Of a stretch of DNA of 64,000 nt, positions 2,131-51,100 are shown in pieces. Position 1 is the first letter of the stretch; every line of letters starts with the position of its first letter. Made by a program: the position numbers and the translations under genes. The notes under the pieces were generated by a model, which did not search any database, was not told the origin of the DNA, and saw only the letters and a list, made by a program, of their open reading frames with translations. The stretch comes from Lingula anatina (lineage: Eukaryota > Animalia > Brachiopoda): assembly GCA_051362555.1 (NCBI GenBank), contig CM120648.1, positions 19,402,587 through 19,466,586 on the forward strand, in the 5' to 3' direction.

Positions 2131-2822
2131 TTATAAAAAAAGAATAAGATTGGTATCCAATTCCACTTTATTCAGACACCGTCCCGTACATTTGACAATA
2201 CTGTAATTCACAGCGTTCACATTGTTCAGGACCCATATAACCCATCTACCAATTGTCGGGAGCGCACGTGGATCAAGAGACGCTCCCGATGACCTAATTA
2301 CGTAAATAGACTTCATTAACTTTGTGCGCTGATTGGACATTGGTCCTCCAGCAGAAAATCCACCTAAGATCATAATGATAAAGGAAACTAGTATAAAAGA
2401 TCATATTTGTTGTTCCCACAAAATGAAAAAGACACCTTTTAGACCTGGAAGACGGGCCCTTTTCTTCCCGGACCCTTTCCATAGGCTAAAGAAAGTTTGC
2501 TGGGCATCCTCTAGATAATGAAAGAGATTTAGACTACCCTCCAACCTCTGTCTCCATTGCTATCCTTCGTTAACCGTAACGAAATTTTCCATTTTTGCCC
2601 AATTCACTTCTTTCATTATATCTACAAACTTACCTCTAATAGTGACTTTGTCCCATTGGGGTTTTTCAATAGTCACTAGGACAGTCCACTGAGCCTTCAT
2701 GACTTTCAATGGCTGCCGTTCCATAAGGAGGACTCCGTCCGTTAACTTCGTGAACTCCCCGTGAACTCCCGAAGAGAACAAAAAGATTAACAAAGTTAGT
2801 AGGAACCTACCTGCTAACTTAC
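2131..2822 (-). pseudogene. Decayed env-like gene of the Gypsy element (F-protein/errantivirus type)
   Basis: Directly downstream of pol. Hydrophobic leader LLTLLIFLFSSGVHG; furin-like RSKR at 2446-2435 followed by CLFHFVG; later hydrophobic SFILVSFIIMILGG; stops and frameshifts present. Confidence 0.55.
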
Positions 2823-4300
2823 CTAGTGGGAAACTTCCATCTCCACTTCCTTTGCCACATCCTCGTGGTCTACAGCCTGTGCCACATCCTCATGGTCTAC
2901 AGAACCGTCCTCCATTTCCTCTGCCGCTTCCTCGTGGCAGGTATTGCCTTTTTGCTCTGTCGCTTCCTCGCGACAGGCTTTCTTCTTTGGTTGCTCGTGA
3001 ACCAAGTCCTCTGCTGTTTGCATGCATCTTTTTCTGTGTCTAGTGAAGTGTGAATGTTGGGGTACGGTGGCTGCCTGTATGCGCCGTTTCCTGTACCTGG
3101 TGTTGTGAGTGTGTGTAGGCACTGTGTTTCGCTTTGATGCTACTGGAGCTTCCCACTCGTGAACTGATTCAGTGTCTGAGTTGTCAGTGTCTGAGTTGTC
3201 GGAAACACTTACCGTATCACCTACCTGGCCCTTCGCAGGTCTGGCTACTTGGTCAGCAACTCTGTCCTCAGCTGCTAACTGCCCCTGCCTTGCGTTTGGA
3301 GTTCTTTTTAACACCCTCGGACGTCGGCGCTATGCCATCCCAGACTACACCTCTATCAACTAATCGGATCTTATCTCTATTAACTACTCTGGTCTTACCG
3401 GTCTGTTGGTTAATTAGCCAGAATACGTTATTTCTATGGCGCGTCACTGTCCATTGGGGGTCCCACTTTGATCCAAATGTAATATTATCAGGTGCATATA
3501 TGATCACACTATCACCCACCTCAATCTTGTTCGCGTTTGCCTTTGCGTCATACCGTCTTTTGTTTTCTAATCGGCCTGCTTGTAAATTGGCGCGCGCGGT
3601 GATCAGGGCGTCTGATAAGTCACTTAAACGGCCTTTTAGCGCGAGGGGGTCATTAGACACGTTAAAGGTTGCCGACAGCGGCATTCGCGGTCTTCTTCCG
3701 TACACTAGGAAGAATGGGGTAAAATTTGTGGCTACCGATACGCTGGTTCCATAAGCAAAAAGCGCGTTCGCGATGTTTTCCTCCCATGCTCGTGTGTTGT
3801 TATTTACAACTCTGGTTATCAAGCCCTTGAGTGTTTTATTGAATATTTCTACATTCCCTTTACACCGCGGATTAAAACTCGTGGTTCTCCTGTGATCTAT
3901 TCCCAGGCCTTGCAAATATGAGCGAAATTCGTGCGCGCTAAATTCACTTCCTCTGTCCGATATTATAATTTCGGGCACTCCGTGTCGCGGAAAAAATTCC
4001 GTAGCCAGCGCGGCTTGTACTGATTCGGATGTTTTATTGGGAATGGGAAAACTTTCGGCCCAGCCACTAAGGTGACAAACAACATTTAGACAATATTTGT
4101 TGCCTCGCGGAGACTCTTGGAAAGGACCGATTAAATCCATACCAATTATCTGGAATGGGTACGCGGGTAAAGGTAACTCGTCCAAGGTGGTTCTTTGCGA
4201 TCGCGTTTTGTGTACCAGACTCGTGGGACATTGTTTTATCCATCGCGTCACATGCTTTCTCATTCCCGGCCAAACGTACGCGTGAGTGAAAGCTTCCTAC
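2823..4300 (-). mobile_element. Gypsy/Ty3 LTR-retrotransposon pol fragment (integrase), 5'-truncated, inside SDR intron 3
   Basis: ORF 3268..4263: zinc-binding remnant (WPGMRKHV..CPT), rve core GMDLIGPF / ISDRGSEF / GNVEIFNKTL, TNFTPFFLVYGR. Low-complexity tail in ORF 2823..3314; no LTR recognised. Confidence 0.9.
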
Positions 4301-28377: not shown

Positions 28378-29319
28378 GATCTACTGTCGGAATGGAAGCC
28401 ATGTTAGGGCAGTCTAGACGAGGTGTAAATCCAAGATCAGGACAGGTGACAGTACAGACACAACCTCCATTAGCTGAACAGGAAACAAATCCAACATCAG
28501 CTCCACATCCTCCTGTTTTCTTAGACAAGGCAGAATGTGTGCGTTCCTTCAGTGCTAAACTGGAAGATGATAGAGACATATACATAACTGGGTTAGCCAT
28601 AGATAAGGAACACATGTTTGTTGTGGATAGAGGAAACAACAGAACAGAAGTATTCACACATGAAGGACAATTTAAGTTTGACATTAAAGTAAACATACCA
28701 TATGATGTGGCTGTGTCACAGACTGGTCACCTGTATATAACATCAGATGGTCACAGTTGTGTCCAAGTGTACTCCACCAGAGGTCAGCAGGTGACAACCA
28801 TGGGTCAGCGTCTACTGGAGGAACCACTGGGTATTACACTGAACAGACAAGGTCATGTGATGGTTTGTGACAGAAGAAAGAAGTCCATCTTCACATTCCA
28901 TGCAGACAGTGGACAGCTCCTGAACACTATTCCACTCAGTATGTGTAGATACCCACAGTACATCACAGTGAACAGTGTGAATGATAACATTGTGATATCA
29001 GACTGGAGATACTGTGTACATGTGCTGTCACCTACTGGTGATCATCTGTACAAGTATGACGACAGCAGAGAAGGCAGTAAACTGAGTTTACCATGTGGAG
29101 TGTGCACAGACAGCTATGGTCACATCTTCATTGCTGACTGGGATAACAACAGGATAGTGGCACTGAGTCCACAGGGACAGTTTATCAGATACATTGTCAC
29201 TAAGGATGATGGGTTGAAGTATCCCAGTGCAGTAGTCATCAACCCTGCTACTGGTCAGCTGGTGGTGGCAGAGTATGACGTCAATGTTAAGACATTCCAG
29301 TACAGTGACCTGAAACAAG
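28378..29319 (+). CDS. NHL-repeat beta-propeller exon (TRIM2/3/71-like C-terminal domain, no RING/B-box seen)
   Basis: ORF 28392..29327 with repeats PYDVAVSQTGHLYIT, PLGITLNRQGHVMVCD, PCGVCTDSYGHIFIADWDNNRI, PSAVVINPATGQLVVAE; ends CAAG|gtaagt, a consensus phase-1 donor just before the ORF stop. Confidence 0.9.
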
Positions 29320-30143
29320 GTAAGTAACATGTATTAACTGTGTGTAGATATGATTATTATGTAAAATATTTGAAAGTTAATTAGTCTTACAATGTTTTTA
29401 TCCATAAATATGTTTGCCTTTATTTCAAGAAAAAACTTTTAAGCATATTTAAATTCAGTAAGCACACAGCTGTGCTTTAGTAAAAATGTATGTAGAGTGG
29501 AGACATTTTCTATAGTTAATACTTTACTGTTACTGACAAATTTCCATGAACCCATTAGTGATTAGGATTTTGAATGATGATGAAGAACTCTTTTTAATGG
29601 AATTTATAGTATGCTTTATTTGTATTTTTATTAAGTCACAAGAAAAACATCTTATATTGTTTAATCCCTGAACTTCTTGTCCATTTGTCAGTGAAGAACA
29701 ACTGAAATCTCACAACAGAACAGTCCAATTCTTCATATTCTTCATCTTGTAGCTGTTCATGAAAGCTTAGATATACCTAAATTCTCAAATGTACTTTGTC
29801 AAGTTTCTTGATGTCTTACCACTTCTAGATTCAAAGACATTTCATCACCAGTTTGTTGTTAACACACACAAATAAATTAAATGTTGAAGTACTTTGGATG
29901 ATACCTTATTTTCCTGACTTTGTGGATTGTTGTTTGCAAATAAAACTAGCAGACGACCATTTTTCATGAAATGGAACTACTTTTCACAGGAAGTAGTATA
30001 TTCATACACAACAGTGACCTTGGGTTTGGAATACAAAAAAATAGTACATGCATTCATACTGTCACAGCATGCAAATTATAATGAAATATACAAAACTAAA
30101 CACATTTTTATGTAACACAAAAAGTTAAATGCATTTTTATTTA

Positions 30144-30174
<31 letters not shown>

Positions 30175-33100
30175 CTGGATAAAAACGTTGATGAAATGGT
30201 TTTGACCACCTTTTTGGACTTTTTAAACTTCATGCTGATGGACCCACATATTTATGTCAAAGGCCCAGACTAAATCTAGTCCCATGCATAAAAAGCCCAG
30301 ACCCCATGTTTATTACGCCCTGGCTGGGCCCATTCTTTATGGTGTTTGTTTTGTTAACAGCATAGTGGGCAAGTTAATTGACCAAATTAATTGGCCAAGC
30401 TGCCAGTTTGTTTGTATGTGCAGGGGATGTCTTATAGAATAATAAAATCAGACAGAATATGCTGTGATTCCTAAATAAAATAGATGGGGGGGGGGGGGGG
30501 GGGGGGGTAGGAGACACCAAGGGGCTCATGATTATAAATGCCATTGCATTAATAATAATGGTTACATATGCACAACTCCTTTCTTATGTTTGAGTCATAA
30601 CATGGTAAATTCATCTTATTATCACGTAGGTGTAATATTTGGCCTTATCAAATATGTTTTTCATTGCATTAACAAAAATAAGTAAAATGTGTACAAAAGC
30701 TTGTTTCAGCAAAATGGTTTAAAATAATTTTTACTCAGAACATATCTTAAGAAGAACCTGCTAGGGGAGAAGACATATATGTTGTGGGAATTATACACCA
30801 ATATCATATTCACCATAAATCATTGACATAAAGAGCTAGTGCATCATATTTATGACCTAAGTTGAAAATGACCCATCGTAACAGCTAGAAATAGGTACTT
30901 TTTGGACACAGAATTGGCCATGTTTTTGTAAATTGTAGTCGGATTATTATAATTCTTTTTTTATTTTGCTCCTATGAACAGTGTCTTTGATATCAGTCTA
31001 TCAGCAATCTCTAATCATAAATTGTTAATTTATCAGACACTTGTAACATTAACCACATTTAATTGTTCACCCTGATTGTGAAACAGCCGCCTGCTCCAAA
31101 TGTACTTGGTCTTCTCCAAATTAAAAAAAAATCTGGATGTTGATAAAATTTATTCTGAACAGTCTATAAGCCAGGCAGATTCAGTACAATGGCATATGTA
31201 TTTGTAGGTTGATAACTTATTAACTAAAGAAAAAACAAACTTCATGTAATAATCATAATAGTGATACATAATACATGTATGGTGATACATTTCACCACAT
31301 TATGATGCAAACACCATCAAATGGAAACAAAAATTAACTTATTATTAAACCAACTTAACAAATGTTTGTGCCAAGCAGATATTTAGCATTGTACAATGTA
31401 CATGTATTTCAGGAACTGCTCAGAATTATGCTGATTGTCATTTCAAGTCTAAATTAAACAAACATCAATGTCGCCTACAAAACTGACACAACTGCACCAT
31501 ATATCTCTTGCTATATGAAATACTTGTTGAAATGATGTTTTCAATAGAACTTATAATATTTTTTTTCATTTTCTTATTTAATCATGAGAAAAACATTCTA
31601 AAATGTTTAATCCCATTTCTTAGTATTATCATTATGCTTCACATATATATCAAGGCTGTTGCAATGTTTTTTTAACTAGTAAACAAATTAAAATCTCTTA
31701 CACTGCTGCAGCACATCATCTACTAGCTATAATTTTTACATCTGATGGTTTTTATGTACAGACACAGATGTGTCTGTACATATAGCCATCATCTGCGTCT
31801 GTCGTCGCCGTCGTCGCCGTGCACTTTTACCGATAACATGATAAGTGGAAAACCATTTAACCTTTTGACTTGAAACTTGCGGAACTGATGAATATTCATA
31901 ATACGCAGGTCAAGTTCGAAAATCAGCATGATCGGGTCACTTTTAGGGAATTTATGCTGTTTTTTCACTTTTTTCAGCATATATGCAGCACCGATAACAC
32001 GATAAGTGGAAAACCATTTTACCTTTTGACTTGAAACTTACAGAACTGATGAATATTCATAATACGCAGATCAAGTTTGAAAATTAGCATGATCGGGTCA
32101 CTTTTAGGGAATTTATGCTGTTTTTTCACTTTTTTCAGCATATATACAGCACCGATTACACGATAAGTGGAAAACCATTTTACCTTTTGACTTGAAACTT
32201 ACAGAACTGATGAATATTCATAATACGCAGGTCAAGTTTGAAAATCAGCATGATTGAGCCATTTTTAGGGAATTTATGCTGTTTTTTCACTATTTTCAAT
32301 ATAAATGCAACACTGATAACACAATATTAGAAGTAAAGATGTGACTTTGAAGTACCATGAGCCTGCAGACCTTTGCTAGTCACATTTTCTGAATGTCCAT
32401 GTTACTAACAGATATCTAAACCAAAACAAAAAGCTATATGCCTGTTTCATTGACATGAGAAAAGCCTTTGATTCAGTATGGCACAAGGGACTATTACTGA
32501 AATTGCTTAAACTAGGCATTAGGGGGAAATTCTACCGTGTCATAAAAAGCATGTATAGTAACACCAGATTAGGCATCTCGGTCGGTTTAGGTTACACTAC
32601 CCCATTTCTATCAAGATTAGGAATCCGCCAAGGGGATAACCTTAGTCCCACTCTCTTTAATTTATACATGGATGACATCAAGGAGGCTTTCATTTCTTGT
32701 AACCAGCCCGGTGCAATTAACGGACTGAATCACATCTTGTATGCTGACGACCTTGTCCTTATATCGGCATCTAAAGATGGTCTTCAAAATAAACTAACGG
32801 CACTGCAAGCTTACTGTAAAAAGTGGAAACTAAACATAAATGAAAAAAAGTCCAAGATCATGATATTTAATAAAATAGGAAAATTAGACTCTGCAACAAC
32901 ATTTACAATAAATAATATAGCCATTGAATCAGTAAAAGAGTACAATTATCTGGGTTTAACTTTTACAAATACAGGTTCAATGAAAAAAGCAATTGAAAAT
33001 TTAAAGAAAAAGGCTCTAAAAGCAACTTTTGCTCTTAAAGCAGCCCTGTCCTCAAACAAGATAACGTCTCCCACACTCAACTTAAAACTTTTTGACAAAA

Positions 33101-36100
33101 TCATCAAGCCCATCTTACTATATGGGTGTGAAGTTTGGTCTGAAGAAATATTCAAGGAAAAACAAATGTCACTTACAAAACTAAATAAATTTCCTTTTGA
33201 ACAACTACATCTAAAAATGTGCAAATGGGCACTAGGTGTACGAAAAAATGCTATGAACAATGCCTGTAGAGCTGAATTTGGAAGATTTCCACTCTATTCT
33301 GATATTGCAAAACGGACAAAGAGATACAGCGCCAGACTAAAAGAGCTACCTTCCAACAGATTGGTCAAAAACATTTATGAACAGGAGCAAAAAGAAAAAG
33401 GACCCTGTTGGTCTGAATCAATAAGAACATTTATACAGTGCTGGGGTCTGGGCCATAAAATTGATACAGAAACACTAGATAACTTTGAAAACCTAAGAGA
33501 TGCTATCAACAATAAAATTGAGGAACTATTTTGGAAAGACTTGCAAAGTGAAAACTACAGTAAACTCAGGACATACAGATTACTTAAAAAAACTTACACC
33601 CCTGAAAAATACCTGTCAATGAAAGTCACACCATCAGAAATGAAGACTATTGCAAAAATGCGGATTAGTGACCACGAATTAGAAATTGAACGTGGCCGCT
33701 ATACGTCCCCTAAAACCCCTACTGAAAATCGCAAGTGCCCCCACTGTAATGAAATTGAAACGGAGATCCACTTTTTACTGAAATGTGAAGAACATAGTGA
33801 CAGAAGAATTAGATTGATGATACCCCCTGAGCAGAAGACAGATCATGAAAAAATTCAGTGGCTGCTCAGTCCAAAAAGTGAATCGTGTTTGAGAACATTA
33901 TATCTTTATATAACTGAAAGTTTGAAAAAACGACACAGCCACCAATAGCAATAGTCGTTTTATTCTGTGCTGCATCCCAGTAAACATTCAATAAGTATTT
34001 GTATAGATATGTATAATTGTTGCTAAGTTGTTATGACTAGTGTAGAGAGCCTGTAAAATGTAATATATATGCATTTTAGTGCTCAATAAAGATTATAATA
34101 TTCTATTATTAAAAATTGATGGTCATTATGCTGTTAAACATTATGTAATGTTGCATCAAAATTTGAAGAAACCCCTATTTTGGGCACTGCTCCCATGATG
34201 ACCATTTAAGGAAAATCATGTCACTTACTGTCTCAAACTTACAGGAAAGAAACTTGGGTTTAAATTACATGTGTACAGCTTCTGTAGGCAATGCAGTTTG
34301 TTTGGTAATTTTTTTCTGGCAATTAAACAGTTTTTTGTGAAAATTGTATTTTTCACTTATTGGCATTTTCAAGGTGTGACTTTGAAGTTCCACGATCCTG
34401 AAGACCTTTGCTTGTCACTTTTTCTGAATGTCCATGTTACTAATATTCTATTCTTAAAAAATTGATGGTCATTATGCTGTAAAGCATTATGTAATGTTGC
34501 ATCAAAATAGAAGAAAACACAATTTTTGGTGCCGCTGCCATGATGACCATTATGAGAAAACTGTGTTACTTATGACTATCAAACCTTTAAAAAAGAAACA
34601 CTGGACTAAAATGCAGCCTGAGTTGGAAAAGCAGTCTAATTGGCTTCTTTTTCTGGAAGTTATACATTTGAGTGAGATATTCATTATCTTTTTGGCTCCC
34701 ATGGACATGAAGGCGAATGGTAATCAAATTTTCTACATGTCCTTGCAATTTATAGTCAATAATCAAAAATTGGTGATAATTATTCTACAATTTATTATGT
34801 AATGTTACATCAAAATTGACAACAATCTTTTTGCACTGCTACTGCAAACATTATGAAAAGAAAACTGTGTTACTTATTATCATTTTTAACTTCCAAGTAT
34901 GATTTTAAGGATTTGCATGCAGTTCAAATTAGAAAGCCAGGTCAATTGGGTTATCATTTATTATTGACTTTATGCAATTGTGTGTGAAATTTTCATTTTT
35001 CTCATTCTGGCACTTTCTAAGTATAAACTTGAACTCTGATGGGCCTGAAGCCTTATGCTCTTACTTTAGTCGGTGTTACCTGTTGTGCATAATTAAAATT
35101 TGATGTTGACTGTGCAGTTAAACATAATGTATTATTGCATCAGAAATGGTAGTCTCCTATTTTGTGCATTATTGTTTTGTGCTTTCCTTAAGATGTGACT
35201 TATGGGCCTGAGAGGCCTTTGAGAGGGTCAGTCTGTAAATTTCCCTTGGGTATCACTTAGCTTAGTTTTGAGTTATAAATTCATTTGCCTAATTGATTAT
35301 TAATAGGCCATTAAATGAGATTACATAAAGCACACTTTTTGATATCTCCCTGTAAACTCCCAAAGGTTAAGCTCTGCTAGATTAATAAGAAGGAAGCAGT
35401 GATAATTATGGAGGTAAATTATGCAGGTAATTATATATATATATATATCAAACACGAAGATGAAAAGTTTGAATAGCAGCATCATTGGAATTATATTTAC
35501 CTCAGGCTCTGCCAAGGAGGTTATATTTTTACCGTTTGTCTGTCATCAACATAACTCAAAAAGTTATTGACCGATTTCGCTGAAATTTTCAGGAACTGTC
35601 AGAAGTGGGCCAATAATTAGTTTTTGGTGGTGGTCTGGCTCAATTATCAATCAATAATCAATAATAATAATCAACAATTGCTGCCTTGGCAGAGGTCTGC
35701 ACTCTCAGAGTGCTTTTCTAGTTTTGTTATGTTTTCCTTTATAATTTTTTCTCAAATACTTGCATTTGTGACTTTTAACTCAAATCCGTTCGAGGCTCTG
35801 CACATTTTCTGTATTTCCACAGAAGCAGTTGTATTGTTTTTATGTCTTTAAACATTATGTAATATTATTTTATACACTGTCATCATTTTTCAAATATTGA
35901 GACTTTCATTGTGCGACTTTGGTCTCTCATGGGCCTGAAACTGCAATCTTATTGAAGGGGTGGATTGAGACCATCTTCTGGGTCTTCCGGAAGACAGTCA
36001 GGTTATTAAGTTTATATTGACTGGTATCTATTTTTTTTTCTGTTGGAAGACCATCAAAGTGGAGGATGGATCAACATAGATACTTTGGAATACTGTCAGA

Positions 36101-39100
36101 AAATATCTCAGGGTCCGCTCCTGTTATTGACCATGTTACCTGTTGTCCATGATTAAAATTCAGTGTTGACTGACATTGCTATTATAAGCATTATTTATTA
36201 TTGCATCAAAATTCACAAAATGACCTTTTTTGCATCTTTATTTTCTGTTTTTTGTCTGTACATTTGACAGCTTTGCTGCCTTGTTAGAAGTTACTGTCCC
36301 TGTGATTCATCAGCTAATATTGTTTTTTTTCTTTTTCAAATAAGTCATATTGTGTAATATTATTCTGTGTTGTTGTTAAGGGATAACTGTTTGTATGATG
36401 TCCATATTTACTAATAAAAATATTGTAAATAACTCCTAGAAATATAACAAATTTTGTTTTACCACTAAAATGGCAGTCAACACATTTATTAGTACCATCA
36501 ACCTGTAAGCTGTTGGTACTCCTGGTTTTAGTCCCGACCCGTCTCGTACACCTCCACCAGCTCTGTGTTCTGGCGCCGAATACAAGTCACTATTCTCCTC
36601 CTAGACAGCAAGGACCCATGTCCCCATCTTTTGGATTTAGGTCACATATAATCTCAACTTGAATCCCCCCCCCCCCCCCGTTTTTATGTACAGACACAGA
36701 TGTGTCTGTACATATTGCCGTCACCTGCGTCTGTCGTCGTCGCTGTGCACTTTCAGCGTTAACACGATAAGTGGAAGACAGTTTTACTTTTTGGCTTTAT
36801 ATTTACAGAGCTGATGAATATTCATAAAACGCGGGTCAAGTTTGAAAATCAGCATGATCGGGCCATTATTGTAGAAGTTATGCTATTTTTTCACTTTTCA
36901 GCATATATGCAACACCGTTAACACATTTCAAGGAAAACCAATAAGCCTGTTGTCATGAAACTTATAGCATGAAAATAAAAAATAAAAGACTGAAATACTC
37001 AAATAGTCTGCTATTCTATACCTGTCTACAAGACACTTAAAACCTAGCTCTTGGCAGCATTGTGTTAATTTGGACCTGTGCAGAAAAAGAGGAACTTAAA
37101 ATTCCTTGCAATGCAGTATCTCCAAAGTTTCCCTCGTGTGCTTCTGTTTGCTAGTGCAATGTCAACAGGTCAACAGGGAGGTATACTGTACAACCTGACC
37201 GCCTATTTGGTCTGTCACCAAGGCAATAAACTGTTTGATGGAGTTCCTAGTCAGACTGGTGGGGTTCATGAGGGTCAACTGACTTAGGTCAATGAATTTT
37301 TAACTTAATGTACAGGTAATTGGGAATAACTCAGAATGTCATAAAAGAAGAGACCTCTTCTTTTAAATAGTCTCTGAAGATCATTGACAAATGTTGCAGC
37401 AGCCCCGCTTTTGACTGTTACGACTCTGTATTTGGCAGGTGCCATTTTTGTTTTTAAAAATGTTCTTGAAACTAAGGAATTTTGTTTTCGTAGGCCAATA
37501 TCCTAAACAAGCGATTAATATGAAAAGAAATCCAGGGAGGGGTTTCAAAACAACAATTAATGTCGATAAATATGGCCTCAAATGTTTTAATGACTGTTAG
37601 TACACAGGTATAACCAAAAGATTTGTACCATGCTTTGGTTATTGACTCTAAGAAATTTAAAGTGAAAAATGCAGTGGTAAGACAAGTAGTAAGACGTTCC
37701 AATTTCAATAAAAAGAAGGGGATTTTTAAAGCTAAAATTTATTTACATACTGAATAAAGTTATTATAAAGATGTAAAATCTCTAAAATAGAGGTAAGTAT
37801 GATCAATATAAAAACTAAAAAAATAAGGTTAATATTCTGATTATATATATATTCACAAAAAATAATACAGGACATTTACAACACAATGAGAGACAAAGAC
37901 ACCTTCCAACTGCCATTCACACACTGAAGTTCTTACAAATGTGGGTTAAAAATACATGTATAATTTTTTTAAATAAAAGAATCTCAGTACATAGTTACAA
38001 AAAACTTGTCTAGGCTTGATTGATCCAGCAGATGGCAGGCTGCTTGATATCCTAGCTGGCCAAAAGGTTAAACAAACATACTTTACTACAGTTGAATAGA
38101 CGAAAAGTTATGAATGTAAGCCAAATGGAGCTTTTGTACCCCTTTGGGACTCCTTCCACAACTGTGGCATAAATGAATTGGATCTAACTCTCACAGTCAT
38201 CTTGTTAAGAATATCACAACACTGAACCCAAAAGCCAGGTGGGACAATCCAACATTAACTGACAAGTCTATAAAAGTCCAGATAGGCAGAGTGAAGAAAT
38301 ACCGCAATATTTACATCTCCTATGCGGGAGCTGGTCTCACAGATCTATACAGAATTCCAGACCAGCTTTACAGAATTGAAATGTTTGTTGTTATCTCTGT
38401 CCCCACTCTACACCAGTGACAACTACAACAAGTTACTGCTTGTTCTACTTTATGCAGCAGGTAAGATGTGTACAAAGATAGCGTTTAGTTATGAAAAAGT
38501 ACACATTTTGTTAGTGGAATGCAAAAGAAAACATAATATTGATAATAGAAATTAAGTTCATAAATAATTTATTCACCTCTGTTTGTTTGTCACCAGCGTA
38601 ACACATGAAGGATATTGTCACTTTTCCCCAAAAACTCTTTATTTGCTGCCTTACATACACTTTCTTGGGAAATATATAAAACGTCAATGTTCAGCGACTA
38701 AATAAATTAACATGTACACCTACAGGTACAAAATCTAACGCATGGGCGTAACTAGGCATAGGCACGGATGCACTGTGCGTACAGTTTTTTAGGCAACCAT
38801 GATATTGAATTATTTCATAGAAATTTAGTGTAGTTTTCACTGAATATAATGAAAAATCCTCTGCGAGTTAAAGTCACCTGTGTGTACATACCCTCTGTGT
38901 CAATTGTATGTATACGCATTGTACACCATTGTTCTGACACCCCATCATGCATACTTTTATTGAACTGAGGTAAACAATGCCTGTTACCTTTACAAGTCCT
39001 ATCTTAATCTTCCATCTAACTGGAACTTCCTTTACCTCTTAATTGGAGTGTTAAGTGGCCTTTAACCCTCCTGTAGCCTTTGTCTTCAGAGTATCGAACG

Positions 39101-42100
39101 CACTCTCACTGGCGATATTTATCTCAGGAAAAAGTCTACCTGTGCGTTATTTTCAAAGAGCAGCTCCAGCAGACCTGGGGGCACTAGATTAAATCTGGAC
39201 ACCAGGTTTAATAAGAGGCTAGAGAAGCAAAGGAAGAATTTTTTCCTTCAAAGCTTCATAGGAATATTAACACAGATTTCCCAGCAGGCAAATTATGTTG
39301 TTTTGACGTTGAAACAACGTTGAACCATAACGTTGAGTAGACATTGAATAAACGTTGGATTTGAAAGTTGTGTCAACCTCAGATAACAACGTTGTATCAA
39401 CGTCAGAAACCAATGTTATATCAACCCCACCCAGCGGGAAATTAGCCTGGATGTGTTTAGCAGTAGGACATGTTTGATGGCTATATATTATTATTATATA
39501 TATAAACCTTGGAAATTTTAACTTAAAGGCCATACATAAATACCCTACATACATTTAGCCATCAAACATGTCCTACTACTAAACACATACAGGCTAAAAG
39601 GGTGTACCATGCTTAGGTGCAAAACATGCTTAGGAGCTAGATGCGTGGAAAATATCAGACAAAGCAGGCACTTGGATGTTTTTACAGTGTACGTTATAAT
39701 TGTGTACCTGTGTTTTGTACCAAAAATAAAAACATTTCATGTCATTTTAATGTCTTTTCATCCAAGAATGTTGTCTAACAACTGGGGTTGATACAATGTT
39801 ATTATGATATCTGACGTTGATGCAACATTGATATCTGAGGTTGAGTCAACTTTCAAATCCAATGTTAATGCAACGTATTATCAACGTTATGGTTCAACGT
39901 TGTTTCAATGTTAAAACAACATAATTTGCCAGCTGGGTAGTGTTTACTTATGAGCATGTAGACATAATGTTAATGGAATTTAAATAAAATATAATATTGA
40001 TGGTAAGGATTTAGTGCACAAGTAATGCATTAACCTCCGTTTGTTTGTCACCAGAGTAACGCAGTAAGTAATCAGTATGGGTGGATTTTGTTGAAATTTT
40101 CATGATACATCAGAGATGGGTTTCCGTATAAGTTTTTATGTACAGACACAGATGTGTCTGTACATATAGCCGTCATCTGCGTCTGTCGTCGCCGTCGCCG
40201 TTGCCGTTGCCGTCGCAAACACGATAAGTGGAATACTGTTTTACCTTTTGGCTTGAAAGTTACAGAACTGATGAATATTCATAATACGCCGGTCAAGTTC
40301 GAAAATCAGCATGATCGGGCCATTTTTAGGGAAGTTATGCTTTTTTTTCACTTTTTTCAGCATATATGCAACACCGTAAACACGATAAGTGGAATACTGT
40401 TTTACCTTTTGGCTTGAAACTTACAGAACTGATGAATATTCATAATACGCCGGTCAAGTTCGAAAATCAGCATGATCGGGCCATTTTTAGGGAAGTTATG
40501 CTTTTTTTTTCACTTTTTCAGCATATATGCAACACCGTAAACACGATAAGTGGAATACTGTTTTTCCTTTTGGCTTGAAACTTACAGAACTGATGAATAT
40601 TCATAATACGCCGGTCAAGTTCGAAAATCAGCATGATCAGGCCATTTTTAGGGAAGTTATGCTTTTTTTTCACTTTTTTCAGCATATATGCAACACCGTA
40701 AACACGATAAGTGGAATACTGATTTACCTTTTGGCTTGAAACTTACAGAACTGATGAATATTCATAATACGCCGGTCAATTCGAAAATCAGCATGATCGG
40801 GCCATTTTTAGGGAAGTTATGCTTTTTTTTCACTTTTTTCAGCATATATGCAACACCGTAAACACAATAAGTGGAAAACGGTTTTACCTTTTGGTTAGAC
40901 CCATTTCAGAAAAGTGCTGTCTTGTTTACATTTTGGCATTTTCAAGATGTGACTTTGAAGTTCCATGGTCCTGAAGACCTTTGCTAGTCACATTTTCTGA
41001 ATATCCATGATACTAATATTTTATGATTAAAAATTGATGGTCATTATGCTGTTAAACATTATGTAATATTGCATCAAAATTTGAAGAAACCCCTATTTTG
41101 GGCACTGCTCCCATGATGACCATTTAAGGAAAATCATGTCACTCACTGTTCTCAAACTTACAGGAAAGAAACATGGGACTAAAATATAGCTTCAGTAGGC
41201 AATGCAGTCTGTTTGGTAATTTATTCTGGCAGTTAAACAGTTTTTTTGTGAAAATTTAATTTTTCACATATTGGGATTTTCAGGGTGTGATTTTGAAGTT
41301 CCATGAGCCTGCAGACCTTTGCTAGTCACGTTTTCTGAATGTTCATGTGACTAATATTCTATTATTAAAAATTGATGGTCATTATGCTGTTAAACATGTA
41401 ATATTGCATCAAAATTTGACGAAACCCCTATTTTGGGCACTGCTCCCATGATGACCATTTAAGGAAAATCATGTCACTTACTGTTGTCAAACTTACAGGA
41501 AAGAAACATGGGACTAAAATACAGCTTCAGTAGGCAATACAGTCTGTTTGGTAAATTTTTCTAGCAATTAAACAGTTGTTTGTGAAAATTTAATTTTTCA
41601 CATATTGGCATTTTCAAGGTGTGACTTCAATACGCCGGTCAAGTTCGAAAATCAGCATGATCGGGTCATTTTTAGGGAAGTTATGCTTTTTTTCACTTTT
41701 TTCAGCATTTATGCAACCCTGATAATATGAAAAGTGAAAAACCGCTTTATTTTTTGGCTTAAAACTTACACAACTGATGAATATTTATAATATGCAGGTC
41801 AAGCTGAAAATCAGCATGATCGGGCCAATTTTATGGAAGTTATGCTGTTTTTTTTTCAATTTTTTTCAGCATAAATGCAACACCGATAACACGATAATCG
41901 AAAAAATCATTTTACTTTTTGGCTTATAAGTTACTGAAATGATGAATATTCATAATACGCAGGTTAAGTTCGAAAATCAGCCTGATCGGGCCAATTTAAT
42001 GGAAGTTATTTAATGGCAGTTTTTTCGCAATTTCAGCATATGTGCAACATCGATAACACATTTCAAGGAAAATCAATTGGCCAATTATCTTGAAATTCAC

Positions 42101-45100
42101 AGGGGTGATCAGATTTACTAAAATACAGATGAGGTTCGAAAATTAGCTTGATCAGTTCAGTTTTGGTGAAATTGTGCCTTTTTTTGTAAATAAGTCTTTT
42201 TTCCTTGGATTTAATTCTTAGGCATGTTAACAATCTCATTTGTGAACTAATTAGTAATGTAAAGGTGTTCTTTTGACATTTTCTGCATTTTAACAATATT
42301 GCTAGTTGATTATATAAAAATGATGGTAAACCTGTTATTGTGCATTGTGTAATAAAGTGTCAAAAATGGAAATAAACTCATATCTTTACAGTTTGTCAGA
42401 TTCAATCATTCACCATGTTCAGAATCTCAGAATGGAACAAATTAGACATTTAAAATTGTTCTATTGATATTTTTCCTATGTCAACAACTTTCTTAGTTGA
42501 TCATTTAAAAACAACAGTAAATTGATTTTTTTGATATATGTAAAAAAAGTGTTGAAAGTGGAAAGAAATTCATTTCAGTACAGTTATCTCTTGTGTACAT
42601 TTTGGCATTTTGAAGTTGTGACTCTGAACTTCCATGGCCCTGAAGACCTTTCCATATCAAATTTTCTGAATATCCATGATACTTTTATTTTATTATTAAA
42701 AATTGATAGTCATTATGCTGTTAAGCATTATGTAATATTGCATCATAATTGAAGACAACCCCATTTTAGACAATGCCTCCATAGTGACCATTAAAGGAAA
42801 ACCAAGTCACTTACTCTTCTCAAACTTACAGAAATGTAGCATAGCACTAAATTATAGCTTCAGTTGAAAAACCTGCTATATCAGTTAACTTTCTTGGAAA
42901 TTATATAGTTTTTTGTTACAATTAAAATTTTCATATATGGACATTTTCAAGGTGTGACTTAGTCTTTGATCTTCCATTGGCTTGAATACCATTGCTAGTC
43001 ACATCTTTTGAATAGCTATGATACATTTACTTTATTATTAAAAATTGATGGCCATTGTGCTGTTAAGCATTATGTTAAATTGCATAAAAGATGAAAAAAA
43101 AAAACTTTTTTGGACATCGCTGCTAGGATGACCATTAAGGAAAAACCATTTTACTTATGATATTCTAACTTACTGAAAAATTTCATAGGACTGAAGAGTA
43201 GCTTGTGTTGGAAATCAGTGTGATTGTTTTCTGTTTTGGAAGCAATGCAGCTCTATAGAGTGCTATATGGGGCTACTGTTTATGAATGGTGGTAATTGTC
43301 CCTTGGGATAATCACTAGCTAAATTCAGAGCTATAAAATTACTTGCCTAATTGATTTTCAAGTGCCCATTAAATAAGATTACATAAAGTACACGTTAAGA
43401 TTTCCCATTCAAGTCCTATAGGTTAAGCTCTCTCAACTGTGTCACATAATAAGGAATTGGTGATAATTATGCAGGTAAATGTTGTTTAATATTGCAAATA
43501 AGTTTACAAAAGAAAAAAAAATTGTGTAATGCCAACATTAATGCTATAGATGAATAACAGTGCCTTATTATCCTCAAACGCATTGGGATTATTCATATCA
43601 TGTTAATACAGCAAGATTAAAAGTTTGAATAGCAGCTATATTGGATTTTTTTTGTGTGTTTTCTTTTTAATTTTTTTTTCTAAACACTGGCATTTTCAAC
43701 TCCCATCCACCTGAAGCTCTTCAGATTTTCTGTATTTCCACATAAGCAGTTGCATAGGTTTTTATGTCTTTAAACATTATGTAATATTATTTTATGTACT
43801 GTCAACATTTTTCAAATATTGGGATTTTCATTATGTGAATTTGAACTCTCATGGTCCAGAAACTGTAATCTTATTGCAGGGGTGGATTGAGGCCGTCTTC
43901 TGGGTCTTTCAGATGACAGTCAGATTTTAAAGTTTACATTGACTGGTATCATTTTTTTTTGTTGGAAGACCATCAAAAGTGGAGGATGGATCAACAAAGA
44001 TACTTTGGAATACTGTCAAAAAATATCTCTGGATCTGCTTCTGTTATTGACCATTTTACCTGTTGTACATGATTAAAAATCAGTGTTAACTGACCGTGTT
44101 ATTATAAGCATTATTTATTATTGCATCAAAATTGACAAAATGACCCATTTTGCATCTTTATTTTCTGTTTTTTGTCTGTACATTTGACAGCTTTGCTGCC
44201 TTGTCTTAATCTGTCAGGATCTGGTATAGCGGTGAGCACTGCTGCAGCCCCCACCCCCGTGCTGCAGCTGACCTCACCCCAGGGGATGATGGCTCCCGCC
44301 CCAGGGGTTGGATTAACCCCTGGGCTGATAACCGTACCCGGAGTTATCCCCACAGCTGTTATACCTGGTATGTGTGGGTAGAGCTTAGGGAGGGTGGGGG
44401 AGGTGGCATTGGTTGGGGGGAAGGTAAACAGCTAAGTAAGCCAAAAAGTTAATTGACAAAATTACTGTAACTTTTAGAGGCTTTATATTTTTCTTATCTA
44501 TTTTATAAGCTTTCAAATAAATTGTTGAGTTAATTAAAGAAGGTATATGAATGAACCACTTATTTGTAGCATTTGTCAAAAGCATGAAATATTTTTCTCT
44601 GTTAGAATGGTTGGAATATACATGTACTATGTCAGTTGTATAAGGATTGGAAGGGGAAAGGTTGCAGGGAGGGGGGAAAGAAGGGACACATTAGGAAAAT
44701 AGTGGACCATATACCAAATAATTTTTGATTTATGTTTATCAAAATAACAGCACATTTCAAATTCACATTTGCACTCTTCTCTTTTTCTTCTCACTGTCCA
44801 CCAGGTGGTGCTGGAGCAGTGATGGCCCAACAGATGGTGCCAGTTAAAGATGCTCCAGTATTCCACAGAAAGTCAGATCCCACCACTGCCACCGCTGTCC
44901 GAACGCCACCTGGGGCAGGTGGAGATGGTCAAGTGTCCATGGCAAACACAAAAGAGAAAACCCCAATGTGCTTAATCAATGAGTTAGCCCGCTACAATAA
45001 GGTACCTGAATTGTCATGTAATTTAGTAGAGAGTCTTTGGAAAACTTTTCATCTTTTAAAAATCACACTGAGGTTTGTTCTTATGTTAAAAAAAAAAGAT

Positions 45101-48100
45101 TTAATTTTGATTGTAATTTTTTAGATATTAAATCAGGTACATATTTTCTTTAATTGAATACTTGCATGTTTTCTAATATTGATATTTGTTTTTAAATCCA
45201 GGAAAAGAAAAAAAAATAAAAGTACTTATGGGTTTTGTTTCTTGTTTTCCTTAGATACTCCACCAGTACACATTAACTGACGAACAAGGCCCAGCTCACA
45301 AGAAAACTTTCTTCGTGAAGCTCAAGTTAGGTGACGAAGAGTACGCAGCAAATGGCGCCAGCATCAAAAAGGCGCAGCATGCAGCAGCTGACATTGCGTT
45401 AGAGAAGACACAGTACAAACATCCTCCGCCTAAACCAGCAAAGTATGTGGACGGTACAGGAGTCTGTGGTATGCTGAAAAAACTTTGTTACAGTTTTGAT
45501 GATATTTTTATTTTGATTAACTAGCTTAGAAAAAGAATCATTGTATTAGAGGGTGGGGCTTACGTGAGCCTCTTATTATTTTTCATCATTGACATCTTGA
45601 TATGAAGATGAATTATGAGTATGATGACAGAAACAATTTTCATTTCTTTTTCCAAATATTTTTCCTTTAAACTTTTCTTTATTGTTACTACTTATTCTAT
45701 AGCAAACTGTCCAAAGATGAAATATAAAATAACTGACTTCACTTGACTTATTTTTCTTTTTAATCAGTATGTCAGATTATTATGTTATTCTGCCACCTTT
45801 TCAAAGGACATTTTCATGATATCATTCTGTTATTCTTTCCCCAAGATCCTTCTTCCTCCCGTACCATCACTCCCACAGTGGAACTGAATGCTCTGGCCAT
45901 GAAACGAGGAGAACCTGCTGTGTACCGCCCCATTGAGCCTCCCAGACCTGCGTGCTATGGGCCACCTAACTTGGGCTTCAGGGGCATGTACAACCAAAGG
46001 TAAATAACATGTACAACCAAAGGAAGATAACATTTACAACCAAAGGTAAATAACATGTATAACCAAGGGTAAATAACATGTACAACCAAAGGTAAATAAC
46101 AACCTAAAGAAAATTGATTTTTTTTTTTGGGGGGGGGGGGGGGGGGGTGCTTTTCAGTCTGAAGTGGCAACCCTTTTTCTCATTTTAAGGGTATTTCTTT
46201 TCATTATTTTCTTACAACCAAAATGCCTGGTAGGCATGTGAATACACATACAGGCTTGCTTTTGTGCTTCATTTGAAATCCATTTGCAAAGATCATTTTC
46301 TAAAGCAGAAATCCATGCCAGATTATTTCATACTATTGAGTGAGCTGTAGTCAAGCAGTGGCATGGGTGAGAAAATATCGCAGTGGAAGACTGCCAAATT
46401 GATAGACAAATTGACAACCGAGCCAGAAACCAGTTAACATTCAGACTTTCTATTCCAGATATCATTATCCAAAAGCACAGAAAGTGTTCTACGTGTCCCT
46501 GAAGGTGGGCAACCGAGAATTCATGGGTGAGGGCAACACGCGCCAGGCTGCTCGCCATTTTGCCGCTTCAAAGGCGCTGAAAACGCTGGCCGCTCTCCCT
46601 ATGCCAAACCAAGACAAAACACCACTCCAAGTGAGCGATGGAGTGGGTGACGGTGGTAAGTATCCTGGAGATTTGCAGCACATGCAGTAGGTTACCAGAC
46701 ATGGGGGAAAAACTTTTAAGATGCTGAAGGTCTAGAGGACATACGCAAGAGGAGATCTGAAGGTTCTCACAACATTCTTCGGAGTTCAAACTAAGTAATT
46801 TATTTCTGTTAGACTATGTTTACATGTTAGTGATTATTATATGTTGTATTTTCACATAAACCTAGCTAGTCATAAAGACTTGGGATATTAAAAAATCTTG
46901 CAGGTCCTGTAGCATTTCAATTTGGTCATCTCCAGTGGGACAGGCAGTTTCCCCATGTCTGGATAACACTGGCAAAGTCACATGAAGTTACTTTCTCTTA
47001 TACTATGCTGTCTTTGATGTAAGGCATAAATGTTAGATTTTATTGATTGAAAATAAGAAATGTTATATTTTAGAACTTGCGGGCAAACATATCTATATAC
47101 ATATGCATGCACACCCTTGTCTCTGTCACAACTAACACAATGTTTCTGTCACAACTAACACAATGTTTCTGTCACAGCTAACACAATGTTTCTGTCACAG
47201 CTAACACAATGTTTCTGTCACAACTAACACAATGTTTCTGTCACAACTAACACAATGTTTTTGTCACAGCTAACACAATGTTTCTGTCACAACTAACACA
47301 ATGTTTCTGTCACAGCTAACAATGTTTCTGTCACAGCTAACACAATGTCTCTGTCACAACTAACACAATGTCTCTGTCACAACTAACACAATGTTTCTGT
47401 CACAACTAACACAATGTTTCTGTCACAGCTAACACAATGTTTCTGTCACAGCTAACACCATGTCTCTGTCACAGCTAACACAATGTTTCTGTCACAGCTA
47501 ACACCATGTTTCTGTCACAGCTAACATAATGTTTCTGTCACAGCTAACATAATGTTTCTGACACAGCTAACACCATGTCTCTGTCACAGCTAACACAATG
47601 TTTCTGTCACAACTAACACAATGTTTCTGTCACAGCTAACACTATGTTTCTGTCACAACTAACACAATTTTCTTTTTATGTACAGACACAGATGTGTCTG
47701 TACATATTGCCATCACCTGCGTCTGTCGTCGCCGATGGCGATGCCGATGCAGGCGCCGTGCACTTTCCTTGTAAACACGATAAGTGGAGGGCAGTTTTAC
47801 TTTTTGGCTTTATATTTACAGAGCTGATGAATATTCATAAAACGCAGGTCAAGTTCGAAAATCAGCATGATCGGGCCATTATTGTAGAAGTTATGCTGTT
47901 TTTTCACTTTTCAGCATATATTTCACATTTCCTCAGATTCAATTCTTAGGCATGTTAACAGTCTCATTATTAAACTAATAAGATACGAAAAAGTGTTTGT
48001 TTGGCATTTCCTGCATCTTTACAACATTGTTAGTTGATTTTGTAAAAATGATGGTTAACTTGTTATTGTGTATTGTGTAATAAAGTGTTAAAAATGGAAA

Positions 48101-51100
48101 TAAACTCATATCATTGCAGTTTGTCAGCTTCAATCATTCACTATGTTCAGAATCTCATAATGGAAGAAATTGGACATTTAACACTGCTCTGTTGATATTT
48201 TTCCCATCTCATCAATTTTCTTAGTTGATCATGTAAAAATGGCAGTAAACGGTTAATTTTGTTTTATGTTAAAAATTGTTAAAAATGGAAAAAAAAAAAA
48301 CATTTCAGATCAGTGCTGTCTTGTTTACATTTTGGCATTTTCAAGTTGTGACTTTCAAGTTCCATGGGCCTGAAGACCTTTGCTAGTCAAATTTTTATGT
48401 ACAGACACAGATGTGTCTGTACATCTTGCCATCACCTGTATCTGTCGTCGCCGTCGCCGATGCCGGCGCCGTGCACTTTCCTTGTAAACACGATAAGTGG
48501 AGGGCAGTTTTACTTTTTGGCTTTATATTTACAGAGCTGATGAATATTCATAATACGCAGGTCAAGTTTGAAAATCAGCATTATCGGGCCATTATTGTAG
48601 AAGTTAAGTTGTTTTTTCACTTTTCAGCATATATGCAACCCTGTAAACACATTTTAAGGAAAACCGTTAAGCCTGTTGTCATGAAACTCACAGGAGTAAT
48701 CAATCTTACTTAAATGCAGGTCAAGTTCGAAAATTGGCATGATCGGGCCACTACTGTGTCTGTGCATAAAAATTTGACTAGCAAAGGTCTTCAGGCCCAT
48801 GGAACTTGAAAGTCACAACTTGAAAATGCCAAAATGTAAACAAGACAGCACTGATCTGAAATGTTTTTTTTTTCACTTTTCAGCATATATGCAACCCTGT
48901 AAACACATTTTAAGGAAAACCGTTAAGCCTGTTGTCATGAAACTCACAGGAGTAATCAATTTTACTTAAATGCAGGTCAAGTTCAAAAATTGGCATGATC
49001 GGGCCACTATTTTAGTAGTTATGCTGTTTTTTCACTTTTCAGCATATATGCAACACTGTAAACACAACATAAGAAAAACAGATTGGCCAATTGTCATTAA
49101 ACTCACAGGAGTGGTCAATCTTACTAAAACGCAGGTTAAGTTCGAAAATCAGGATAATCGGGCCATTATTTTAGAAGTTATGCTGTTTTTTCACATTTCC
49201 TCAGATTCAATTCTTAGGCAGGTTAACAGTCTCATTATTTAACTAATAAGACACGTAAAAGTGTTTGGTTGACATTTCCTGCATCTTTACAACATTATTA
49301 GTTGATTATGTAAAAATGATGGTAAACTTGTTATCGTGTATTGTGTAATAAAGTTTCAAAAATGGAAATAAACTCATATCATTGCAGTTTGTCAGCTTCA
49401 ATCATTCACTATGTTCAGAATCTCAGAATGGAGGAAATTGGACATTCCGTCACTGTCACTGGCGCCGGCGCCGTTCACTTTCATTGTAAACACGATAAGT
49501 GGAAGGCAGTTTTACTTTTTGGCTGTATATTTACAGAGCTGATGAATATTCATAAAATGCAGGTCAAGTTCGAAAATCAGCATGACCGGGCCATTATTGT
49601 AAAAGTTATGCTGTTTTTTCACTTTTCAGCATATATGCAACACTGTAAACACAACATAAGAAAAACAGATTGGCCAATTGTCATTAAATTCACAGGAGTG
49701 GTCATTCCTGCTAAAACGCAGGTTGAGTCAAAAATCAGCATAATAGGGCCATTATTTTAGAAGTTATGCTGTCTTTTCACATTTCCTCAGATTTAATTCT
49801 TAGGCATGTTAACAGTTTCAAATTTTAATTAATAAGATACGAAAAAGTGTTTGTTTGGCATTTCTTGCATCTTTACAACATTATTAGTTGATTATGTAAA
49901 AACGATGGTAAACTTGTTATCGTGTATTGTGTAATAAAGTTTCAAAAATGGAAATAAACTCATATCATTGCAGTTTGTCAGATTCAATCATTCACTATGT
50001 TCGGAATCTCAGAATGGAAGAAATTGGACATTTAACACTGCTCTATTGATATTTTTCCCATCTCATCAATTTTCTTAGTTGATCATATAAAAATGGCAGT
50101 AAACTATTAATTTTGTTTTATGTTAAAAATTGTTAAAAATGGAAAAGAAAACATTTCAGAACAGTGCTATCTTGTTTTAATATAGATTTTTAAATATTTA
50201 AGACATTGCAGAAATCTTGAGTTTGGCAGTTTCTCCATGAAACACTGCTTTTTGGTCATAGCATCCTATAGTAAACTACCCCAAACATATACCCAAAACC
50301 CCCAAATCAAATGTCAAGTTTGACCTTGACCCTCATTTTCAAGGTCATTTGGCTATTTCATGGAGAAATATTGAAGTGGGCTAAAAGTGATGTTTAGTTG
50401 ACCCCCCCCCCCCCAATTCGCACATGCTCTTTCAGAATATAGGGTCAAATTTAACCCATGACCTTCACATGACCTTGTAAGAGCATTTTCACACCTATTT
50501 TGCAGGGGAATCCTCCGCCACTGGCTTTAGCCAGTTGCAGTCTAGTTAAAATTTGATGTTGAATTTGCAGTTTAACATAATGTACTTTTGCATCATAATT
50601 GACAGTAGCCTATTTTGTTATTTCCTGCTTTTTGTCTGTACATTTGACAGCTTTGCTGCCTTGTTTTAAAATTCTGGTGTTAATATGCAATACCATTTGC
50701 CCTCCACCTCTTTAGATATTCTTTCGCTTCTTCTCTGCTATCGCCTCACAATTAAATGTCATCCGCAAACATCATCATTCACGGGACATTTTCCATGAGT
50801 CATTTCGTCAATCTGAAGCAATATCATTCGTATTACCAGGTGAATTTAATGAACGGCTTCGCCGATTGTGTGAAAGTGGTAAGATTCCAGTATACCGACA
50901 GCGAGTAGCTATTGTAGGACCTTACGGTGTGGGAAAGACTCATCTCGCCAAGCGCCTCATCCATGAGGAATATATCAAAGCAGAAGATGCAAATACAACT
51001 GGCGTGAATATATACCGTCATAGGTGTGTTGTCCATAAAGCTGGCCGATCCTGTTGGATAAGAGGAAAAGGTAAGCAGAATATAGGAAAACATTTGGCAC

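Follow-up and report, generated by a model that had tools for sequence, protein, structure and literature searches.

The brachiopod Lingula anatina carries a block of exons from the gene staufen between two coding exons of a Roco gene, which raises the question of whether the block belongs to the native staufen locus or is a second copy and, if a copy, how it arrived. It was studied in a window of 64,000 nucleotides (GenBank assembly GCA_051362555.1, contig CM120648.1, positions 19,402,587 to 19,466,586, forward strand), to which all coordinates below refer (Table 1). The original prediction was of a captured DNA-level copy bracketed by same-orientation repeats of the HINE type (non-autonomous Helentrons). 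The window is Lingula DNA, as its COR, staufen, Roc and NHL exons all have their top protein matches in Lingula anatina. The block is a second, young paralogous staufen copy and not the native locus; it is a real, well-preserved young insertion.

Structure of the staufen-derived block

The five block exons (S1–S5; 44218–46655, 912 nt) correspond to staufen exons 2–6 and lie between the NHL and Roc exons. Their translation shares 291 of 303 residues with L. anatina Staufen (XP_023933375.1, amino acids 21–324). Each of the ten splice sites is canonical (AG/GT), there are no stops and the outer phases are both 1. The in-frame insertion that had been predicted from phase 1 at both ends was thus confirmed by the splice sites and by the predicted frame from the NHL exon to the stop, which is open with the block (1553 amino acids) and without it (1249 amino acids). 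Four introns are retained; this rules out a retrocopy and agrees with the DNA-level copy proposed originally. When native staufen spliced RNA was aligned to the block the same four introns were found, which fixed the S3 donor at 45468; a candidate donor at 45453 was discarded because the RNA uses 45468. A partial exon 7 at 47074 was also discarded, as it matches neither the reference Staufen protein nor the RNA partner. The start of exon 7 is known from RNA, and its best match in the window has 12 mismatches in 30 letters.

Staufen exon 1 and everything beyond amino acid 324 (of 755) were not found in the window using tblastn, the remaining staufen matches being cross-matches of dsRBD3–4 (dsRBD, double-stranded RNA-binding domain) to the same block exons. 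The locus therefore does not hold a complete staufen: exon 1, dsRBD3–5 and Staufen_C are missing. On the basis of this exon content the block is not a staufen gene.

Evidence for a second copy

RNA was represented by the raw runs X11, X14 and X17 (three studies; about 6, 6 and 25% of each run read) and by a spliced contig of 2055 nt, X8. DNA was represented by contigs of the runs X1, X2 and X4 (X4 from another study), which show presence and not absence. In transcribed staufen S5 is joined to exon 7 (57 X14 reads, agreement 1.0, and the X8 contig) and S1 is joined to exon 1 (X8 contig). A letter other than that of the window was read at 44901 (20/20 X11, 53/53 X14 and 69/69 X17 reads), at 45314 (11/11, 106/106 and 86/86, respectively) and at 45975 (7/7, 95/95 and 93/93). 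These three sites, together with 46615, are private to the block. The X8 transcript differs from the block exons at 20 of about 912 positions (2.2%).

Both X1 and X2 contain window-identical intron pieces (0–1 differences over 175–330 nt) alongside a native type. The latter is common to X4, with, for example, ten common differences at 44753–44788 and a 12-nt insertion at 45153. Only the native type was seen in X4, where none of 38 contigs was at least 99% like the window and the intron pieces differed by about 3–16%. In X1 the depth was about 60× for the window-identical pieces and about 79–93× for the native type. The alternative that this is the only staufen locus fails, since a full-length staufen with other alleles and flanking exons is transcribed and two DNA runs hold both types. 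The copy is probably present in single dose and polymorphic, occurring in some animals only.

At 44250, 44259, 44271, 44830, 44845 and 44882 the block has the letter of the X17 staufen, against X1, X11 and X14 (and X4 and X8). With these six letters in common, the block may predate those alleles or may stem from another lineage. Two repeats were observed inside the block: a 23-bp tandem array (45985–46101) that repeats the S4 donor site five times, with fewer units in an X2 contig, and a dispersed repeat fragment in staufen intron 6 (46786–46961) that stands out in every DNA run by its raised depth and many loose ends.

Flanking repeats

HINEs are characterized by subterminal inverted repeats (subTIRs), a 5′ palindrome, a 3′ stem-loop, boundary T-runs and microsatellite or tandem repeats (PMC4067079). 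An 11-nt subTIR follows the 5′ T-run of the upstream element (HINE A), with its reverse complement at 44173–44183, which lies within the range of about 11–15 bp for such elements. At both 40133 and 47673 the palindrome of the 5′ subTIR forms a 13-bp hairpin (−11.8 kcal/mol, DNA parameters). All 3′ ends conserve a weak 4-bp stem within their last 20 nt (−3.0 kcal/mol for the whole piece). Every aligned 5′ end starts within a T-run and a T follows every 3′ end. The window holds five 28-nt 5′ motifs and five 28-nt 3′ motifs, and the tandem arrays have units of 161, 165 and 335 bp. No stop-to-stop frame of more than 144 amino acids is present in A (40133–44204) or in the downstream cluster B (47673–50665). 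Structurally, the repeats fit HINE-like elements. Sequences of HINE 3′ ends (44105–44208) are abundant in the RNA of all three studies, mostly from one strand in X11 and X14 and with many different flanks.

HINE A ends at 44203/44204, 13 nt upstream of S1. The minisatellite begins 463 nt past S5 and is followed by the next HINE 5′ end at about 47673; the 3′ end of B (50663–50665) lies 175 nt before the phase-1 Roc acceptor at 50840. The coordinates and distances originally given (13 nt, about 0.5 and 1 kb, 175 nt) were all reproduced. Same-orientation HINEs do enclose the block (40133 to 50665), as had been claimed, but this is weakly informative because it is true of most intronic segments here: forward-strand HINE pieces make up 45% of 29320–55637 and every intragenic copy is on the forward strand, so that bracketing does not set the block apart. 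What is unusual is solely the closeness of its 5′ end to a HINE. A and B have a common subTIR and belong to different subfamilies; local pieces are about 67–94% alike (mostly 74–83%), the longest exact match is 36 nt and their last 60 nt align with 52 matches in 65 columns.

Breakpoints

At the 5′ side, a native-type X1 contig starts at 44210, corresponding to a branch at 44209, and the leftover depth in the X1 bin 44186–44284 (2895 depth-bases) fits one contig of about 54× running from the HINE end to 44239. The X2 depths at this junction fit several readings; in X4 nothing aligned at 44186–44229 and no contig crossed the ends of the stretch. The contig starts and depths indicate that similarity to native intron 1 likely begins at 44205–44209, at most 5 nt from the end of A. 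The chance of a breakpoint within 5 nt of one of three HINE 3′ ends is about 0.2% for uniform placement over 7,844 repeat-free positions, an assumption that is broken by T-rich targeting and HINE-linked deletion. Upstream of A, 39938–40069 resembles the host intron at 38479–38611 (77%) and not staufen, with 63 nt unassigned; there is therefore no sign of the block beyond A.

On the 3′ side, the similarity to native staufen can be followed to 47080 or further (native-type contig aligned at 46457–47080, 629/629 letters). A window-identical X2 contig runs from 46895 into the minisatellite, no X4 contig extends past 47135, and the X1 depths are compatible with a break near 47117 as well as with a minisatellite common to the native locus. 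The 3′ breakpoint lies somewhere in 47080–47672. The prediction that the breakpoints are tied to HINE ends thus probably holds for the 5′ end, while the 3′ end is placed only within this interval.

Mechanism of insertion

A HINE was likely involved in the insertion. We tentatively favour, at a little short of an even chance, a young intron-bearing staufen copy brought into Roco intron 1 by rolling-circle read-through of the HINE ending at 44204. In a donor allele, the T-rich polypyrimidine tract of staufen intron 1 would have been the insertion site of a HINE; this would account for the 13-nt gap to S1 and for a block that starts just before an exon. The 3′ terminator of this HINE would then have been bypassed, with copying continuing for about 3–3.5 kb through staufen, perhaps to a downstream HINE as a compound element, and the product would have landed in a T-rich site of the Roco intron. 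Of the rolling-circle capture proposed originally, the HINE structure and the probable 5′ coincidence stand; these do not distinguish a HINE that moved the block from one that trimmed it later.

Several points weigh against read-through. The last 28 nt of A are identical to three sister ends and the terminator is without visible damage. By the same depth inference as above, the sampled native staufen alleles appear to be without HINE A at the site; in bats, too, most parents had no related element nearby (26 cases, against three with one; PMC4224331). The block meets a minisatellite and not a HINE at its 3′ end. A small complete HINE (54120–54458) replaces about 330–350 nt of a duplicated segment in this same gene, which shows that homology can also break off at a HINE end when an insertion is accompanied by a deletion. 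Helentrons are described as rarely capturing gene fragments (PMC4067079). X1 and X2 possibly derive from the source animal and would hence not be independent. Summed contig depth is not copy number. None of the contigs connects the block with the NHL or Roc exon, a linkage that is taken from the assembly.

It is unlikely, in our judgement, that HINE A was already in the Roco intron and that repair of a nick or break at its 3′ end involved a template switch to staufen through T-run microhomology, leaving the block as filler DNA. The native alleles, which seemingly lack HINE A, speak for this reading, as does the density of same-strand HINEs in the intron. Moreover, two duplicated segments in this gene start 0–4 nt past HINE 3′ ends at T-runs, with donor sites lacking a HINE (51342 copied at 54057 and 51731 copied at 54461). 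The pattern at HINE ends thus recurs locally, yet need not mean transduction. A template switch must, however, land by chance 8–13 nt upstream of an acceptor, which insertion in the donor explains through T-rich preference, and the junction letters of the native allele are unseen.

Also unlikely is an arrival independent of HINEs, by end joining or replication slippage, after which HINEs inserting at T-rich sites trimmed the 5′ flank by adjacent deletion. The HINE that replaces about 330–350 nt, including exon R2, in the R3a/R3b duplication is a local precedent, and both the 45% HINE cover and the 3′ junction at the minisatellite are in keeping with it. This sequence of events needs two events at almost one site, and no staufen-like DNA is evident upstream of A, where apart from the host-like stretch only 63 nt are left.

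An assembly artefact, in which a divergent staufen allele or a partial copy from elsewhere was mis-joined through the flanking repeats, is very unlikely. High-copy repeat lies on the two sides of the block (4 and 3.5 kb) and no listed contig spans the aligned stretch. However, window-type letters were not found in transcribed staufen in the four runs, and X1, X2 and X4 hold native types that are consistent among themselves and differ from the window. In X2 the depths (140–268× for pieces common to both types against 45–95× for single types) hint at three copies, and an X2 contig supports the junction of the block with the minisatellite.

Non-allelic homologous recombination of HINEs around the donor exons with HINEs of the Roco intron, the other route originally suggested, could draw on the related same-orientation repeats on either side and on the partial attribution of DNAREP1/DINE-1 at young Drosophila duplicate breakpoints to this process (PMC2211543), but it is highly improbable since the donor exons would have to be flanked by HINEs at both ends, the 5′ one being seemingly absent from the sampled donors, and since A and B, of different subfamilies, are too little alike (as given above).

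Splicing, selection and possible function

A branch-point-like motif contributed by the end of A lies 31 nt ahead of the S1 acceptor, but the same end also brings an extra AG at −29, so that inclusion of the block may occur without being certain. With this motif and phase 1 at both ends, the block could be spliced as a 304-codon cassette adding dsRBD1–2. The null expectation is a neutral, mostly skipped passenger. Neither a block allele nor a chimeric mRNA was found among the matches listed for the four RNA runs, whose animals may not carry the block. None of the 12 block substitutions falls in dsRBD1 (amino acids 123–186). The block-private changes listed comprise at least six non-synonymous and at least three to four synonymous changes (pN/pS 0.49–0.65; P = 0.27–0.47 against neutrality, an underpowered comparison).

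HEPN domains with an R-x4-H motif are RNases in which the motif is catalytic, and some NHL domains bind RNA. It is conceivable, though quite improbable, that the locus encodes a newborn polymorphic NHL-dsRBD1-dsRBD2-Roc-COR-HEPN protein, joining a dsRNA sensor from a developmental gene to a GTPase switch and a predicted HEPN nuclease, and that Helentrons drive module swapping in Lingula Roco immune genes. If the cassette is spliced and kept by selection, a dsRBD-Roco-HEPN architecture would result; if it is skipped, the block is another neutral rolling-circle passenger.

The host gene and its modules

The host encodes a Roco protein, with a Roc GTPase followed by COR, both above the Pfam cutoff and in an open frame. 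Its translation from Roc to the stop has 692 identities to XP_023933246.1 in 823 aligned columns, and the first Roc exon is 96–99% identical to three L. anatina proteins. Two L. anatina proteins, XP_013379953.1 and XP_023930482.1, have N-termini that are 84–87% identical to the NHL exon. In these two reference gene models the NHL exon is joined directly to this Roc exon; the position of the block therefore corresponds to intron 1 in the relatives. The NHL-Roc-COR-HEPN gene is likely of the immune type. A Roc exon start at 50716, the acceptor of model XP_013378865.1, was rejected as it is in phase 0 and out of frame with NHL or S5; the segment 50716–50839 behind this upstream acceptor would shift the frame if joined to either.

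Table 1. Positions of the features discussed, in window coordinates.
Feature	Positions	Strand	Evidence or remark
Host first coding exon, NHL-repeat β-propeller, phase-1 donor	28392–29319	+	Pfam NHL, E = 1.2e-18
Decayed DZIP3-type HEPN exon, frameshifts and stops in all three frames, phase-1 donor kept	37980–38460	+	tblastn of paralog amino acids 67–193 in three frames, E = 1e-26
Upstream HINE A: 5′ palindromic subTIR, microsatellite, 161-bp and 335-bp tandem units, 3′ subTIR and short stem-loop	40133–44204	+	
Staufen-derived block with introns	44205–47117	+	Native similarity from about 44205–44210 (inferred) to at least 47080
S1, staufen exon 2, low-complexity N-terminal region, phase 1-1	44218–44367	+	
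S2, staufen exon 3, start of dsRBD1, phase 1-0	44805–45001	+	
S3, staufen exon 4, remainder of dsRBD1, phase 0-1	45255–45468	+	Pfam dsrm, E = 4.4e-9; RNA joint 45467>45845
S4, staufen exon 5, first half of dsRBD2, phase 1-2	45846–45999	+	
S5, staufen exon 6, second half of dsRBD2, phase 2-1	46459–46655	+	Pfam dsrm, E = 3.7e-5
23-bp minisatellite between block and HINE B	47118–47672		24.3 copies of 23-nt unit
Downstream HINE cluster B: 5′ ends 47673 and 48392, internal inversion, 3′ end 50663–50665	47673–50665	+	
First Roc exon (P-loop), phase 1-1	50840–51070	+	Pfam Roc, E = 4.9e-6 on surrounding open reading frame
Other Roc and COR exons	51505–51660, 51875–51925, 54741–54791, 55638–55883, 56268–56392, 58613–59795	+	Pfam Roc and COR-A
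Last two exons, DZIP3-type HEPN, R-x4-H motif, hydrophobic tail, stop	60940–60972, 61285–62030	+	Pfam HEPN_DZIP3, E = 3.3e-19

The 3′ part of TRIM-NHL genes is similar to the NHL exon (63% for XP_013418625.1). Copies that are 83–87% identical precede this Roc, the distant Roc-COR protein XP_013403180.1 (28% in COR) and the non-Roco protein XP_013391204.1. Judged from these comparisons, the NHL exon is a mobile module and the host family swaps phase-1 modules. The decayed HEPN exon matches the exon that precedes Roc in the paralog XP_013395173.1 and is likely the former first module upstream of Roc, displaced by the NHL exon. Other Roco paralogs carry caspase domains. Apart from the dead HEPN exon, no hidden exons of the 11 Lingula proteins tested were found in 29320–44204. 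No Roc or NHL protein with dsrm was found in a COR search (five matches among 4353 candidates), a Roc search (four of 43) or by Pfam in 17 NHL proteins, these searches being word-limited or partial. The exon arrangements point to ongoing domain shuffling in brachiopod candidate immune genes.

In a local duplication (51334–52044 versus 54049–54908) exon R3, of 51 nt, is doubled; a HINE 3′ end lies at each of the two homology starts, and in the second copy a small HINE stands in place of exon R2. Exon R3 is also doubled in model XP_023930482.1, and another model doubles R2.

Other features of the window

A 522-amino-acid reverse-transcriptase frame (32380–33948; Pfam RVT_1) belongs to a 5′-truncated non-LTR element within the HINE at 31748–36285. 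A MITE-like element with terminal inverted repeats of about 150 bp (84%) lies at 39280–39937. The Roco introns contain a 146-bp tandem array (57205–57959), and a second dispersed repeat family was found at 56444–56613 and 36515–36668. On the reverse strand, by eye, we take 2560–4296 to be an integrase-like frame of an LTR retrotransposon (LTR, long terminal repeat) and 1654–1974 to be a short-chain dehydrogenase-like exon.

Comparison with known systems

Cases in which two coding genes were fused recently and in frame, with introns retained and breakpoints intact, are rare and are useful for testing exon shuffling. As the block seems to be polymorphic, the empty site, the donor allele and the splicing outcome are accessible in living animals. 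A literature search that covered few subscription papers and no supplements found no report of this locus, of Lingula Helentrons or of a dsRBD-Roco fusion of the architecture considered above, and the main text of a Lingula genome paper has no passage on 'Helitron' or 'staufen' (PMC13121700). HINE-associated duplicates in Drosophila (PMC2211543) and shuffled ROCO genes in brown algae (PMC11378527) are already known.

In mouse Stau2 the dsRBD1-2 tandem binds RNA, as does dsRBD3-4 (10.1101/396994). The Lingula block, by its predicted domains, holds exactly this tandem without exon 1, dsRBD3–5 and the C-terminal domain.

The Lingula repeats are like described HINE/Helentron elements in their subTIRs, 5′ palindrome, 3′ stem-loop, T-runs and central arrays (161 bp), but their 3′ subTIR lies about 20 nt from the terminus, compared with 38–60 bp in mite families (PMC4067079). 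Helentron-type elements with satellite-like arrays have been reported from the oyster (PMC7492417). The Drosophila DINE-1/DNAREP1 duplicates are likewise dispersed DNA-level duplicates with a Helentron-type element at the breakpoint (PMC2211543; PMC4067079), and their mechanism is likewise split between mobilization of flanking DNA and recombination (PMC2211543). In that account no chimera joins two genic sequences, whereas in Lingula a coding block lies in frame between the coding exons of another gene; expression was shown for the Drosophila duplicates, while the Lingula block is known from DNA (PMC2211543). End-bypass by the bat element HelibatN539 gives a 5′ end and a second same-orientation 3′ end that enclose host DNA starting at the first 3′ end, an arrangement that the Lingula locus probably shares; the Lingula ends differ in being of the Helentron type, and a donor with matching elements was not found (PMC4224331).

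Brown algal ROCO candidate immune receptors (PMC11378527) and the ROCO-bearing TIR proteins of Aplysia (PMC9334734) have the same Roc-COR core with variable accessory exons, which is read as immune diversification. In the brown algae LRR repeats are swapped (PMC11378527), whereas in Lingula whole phase-1 modules (NHL, HEPN, caspase and possibly dsRBD1–2) appear to come from unrelated genes.

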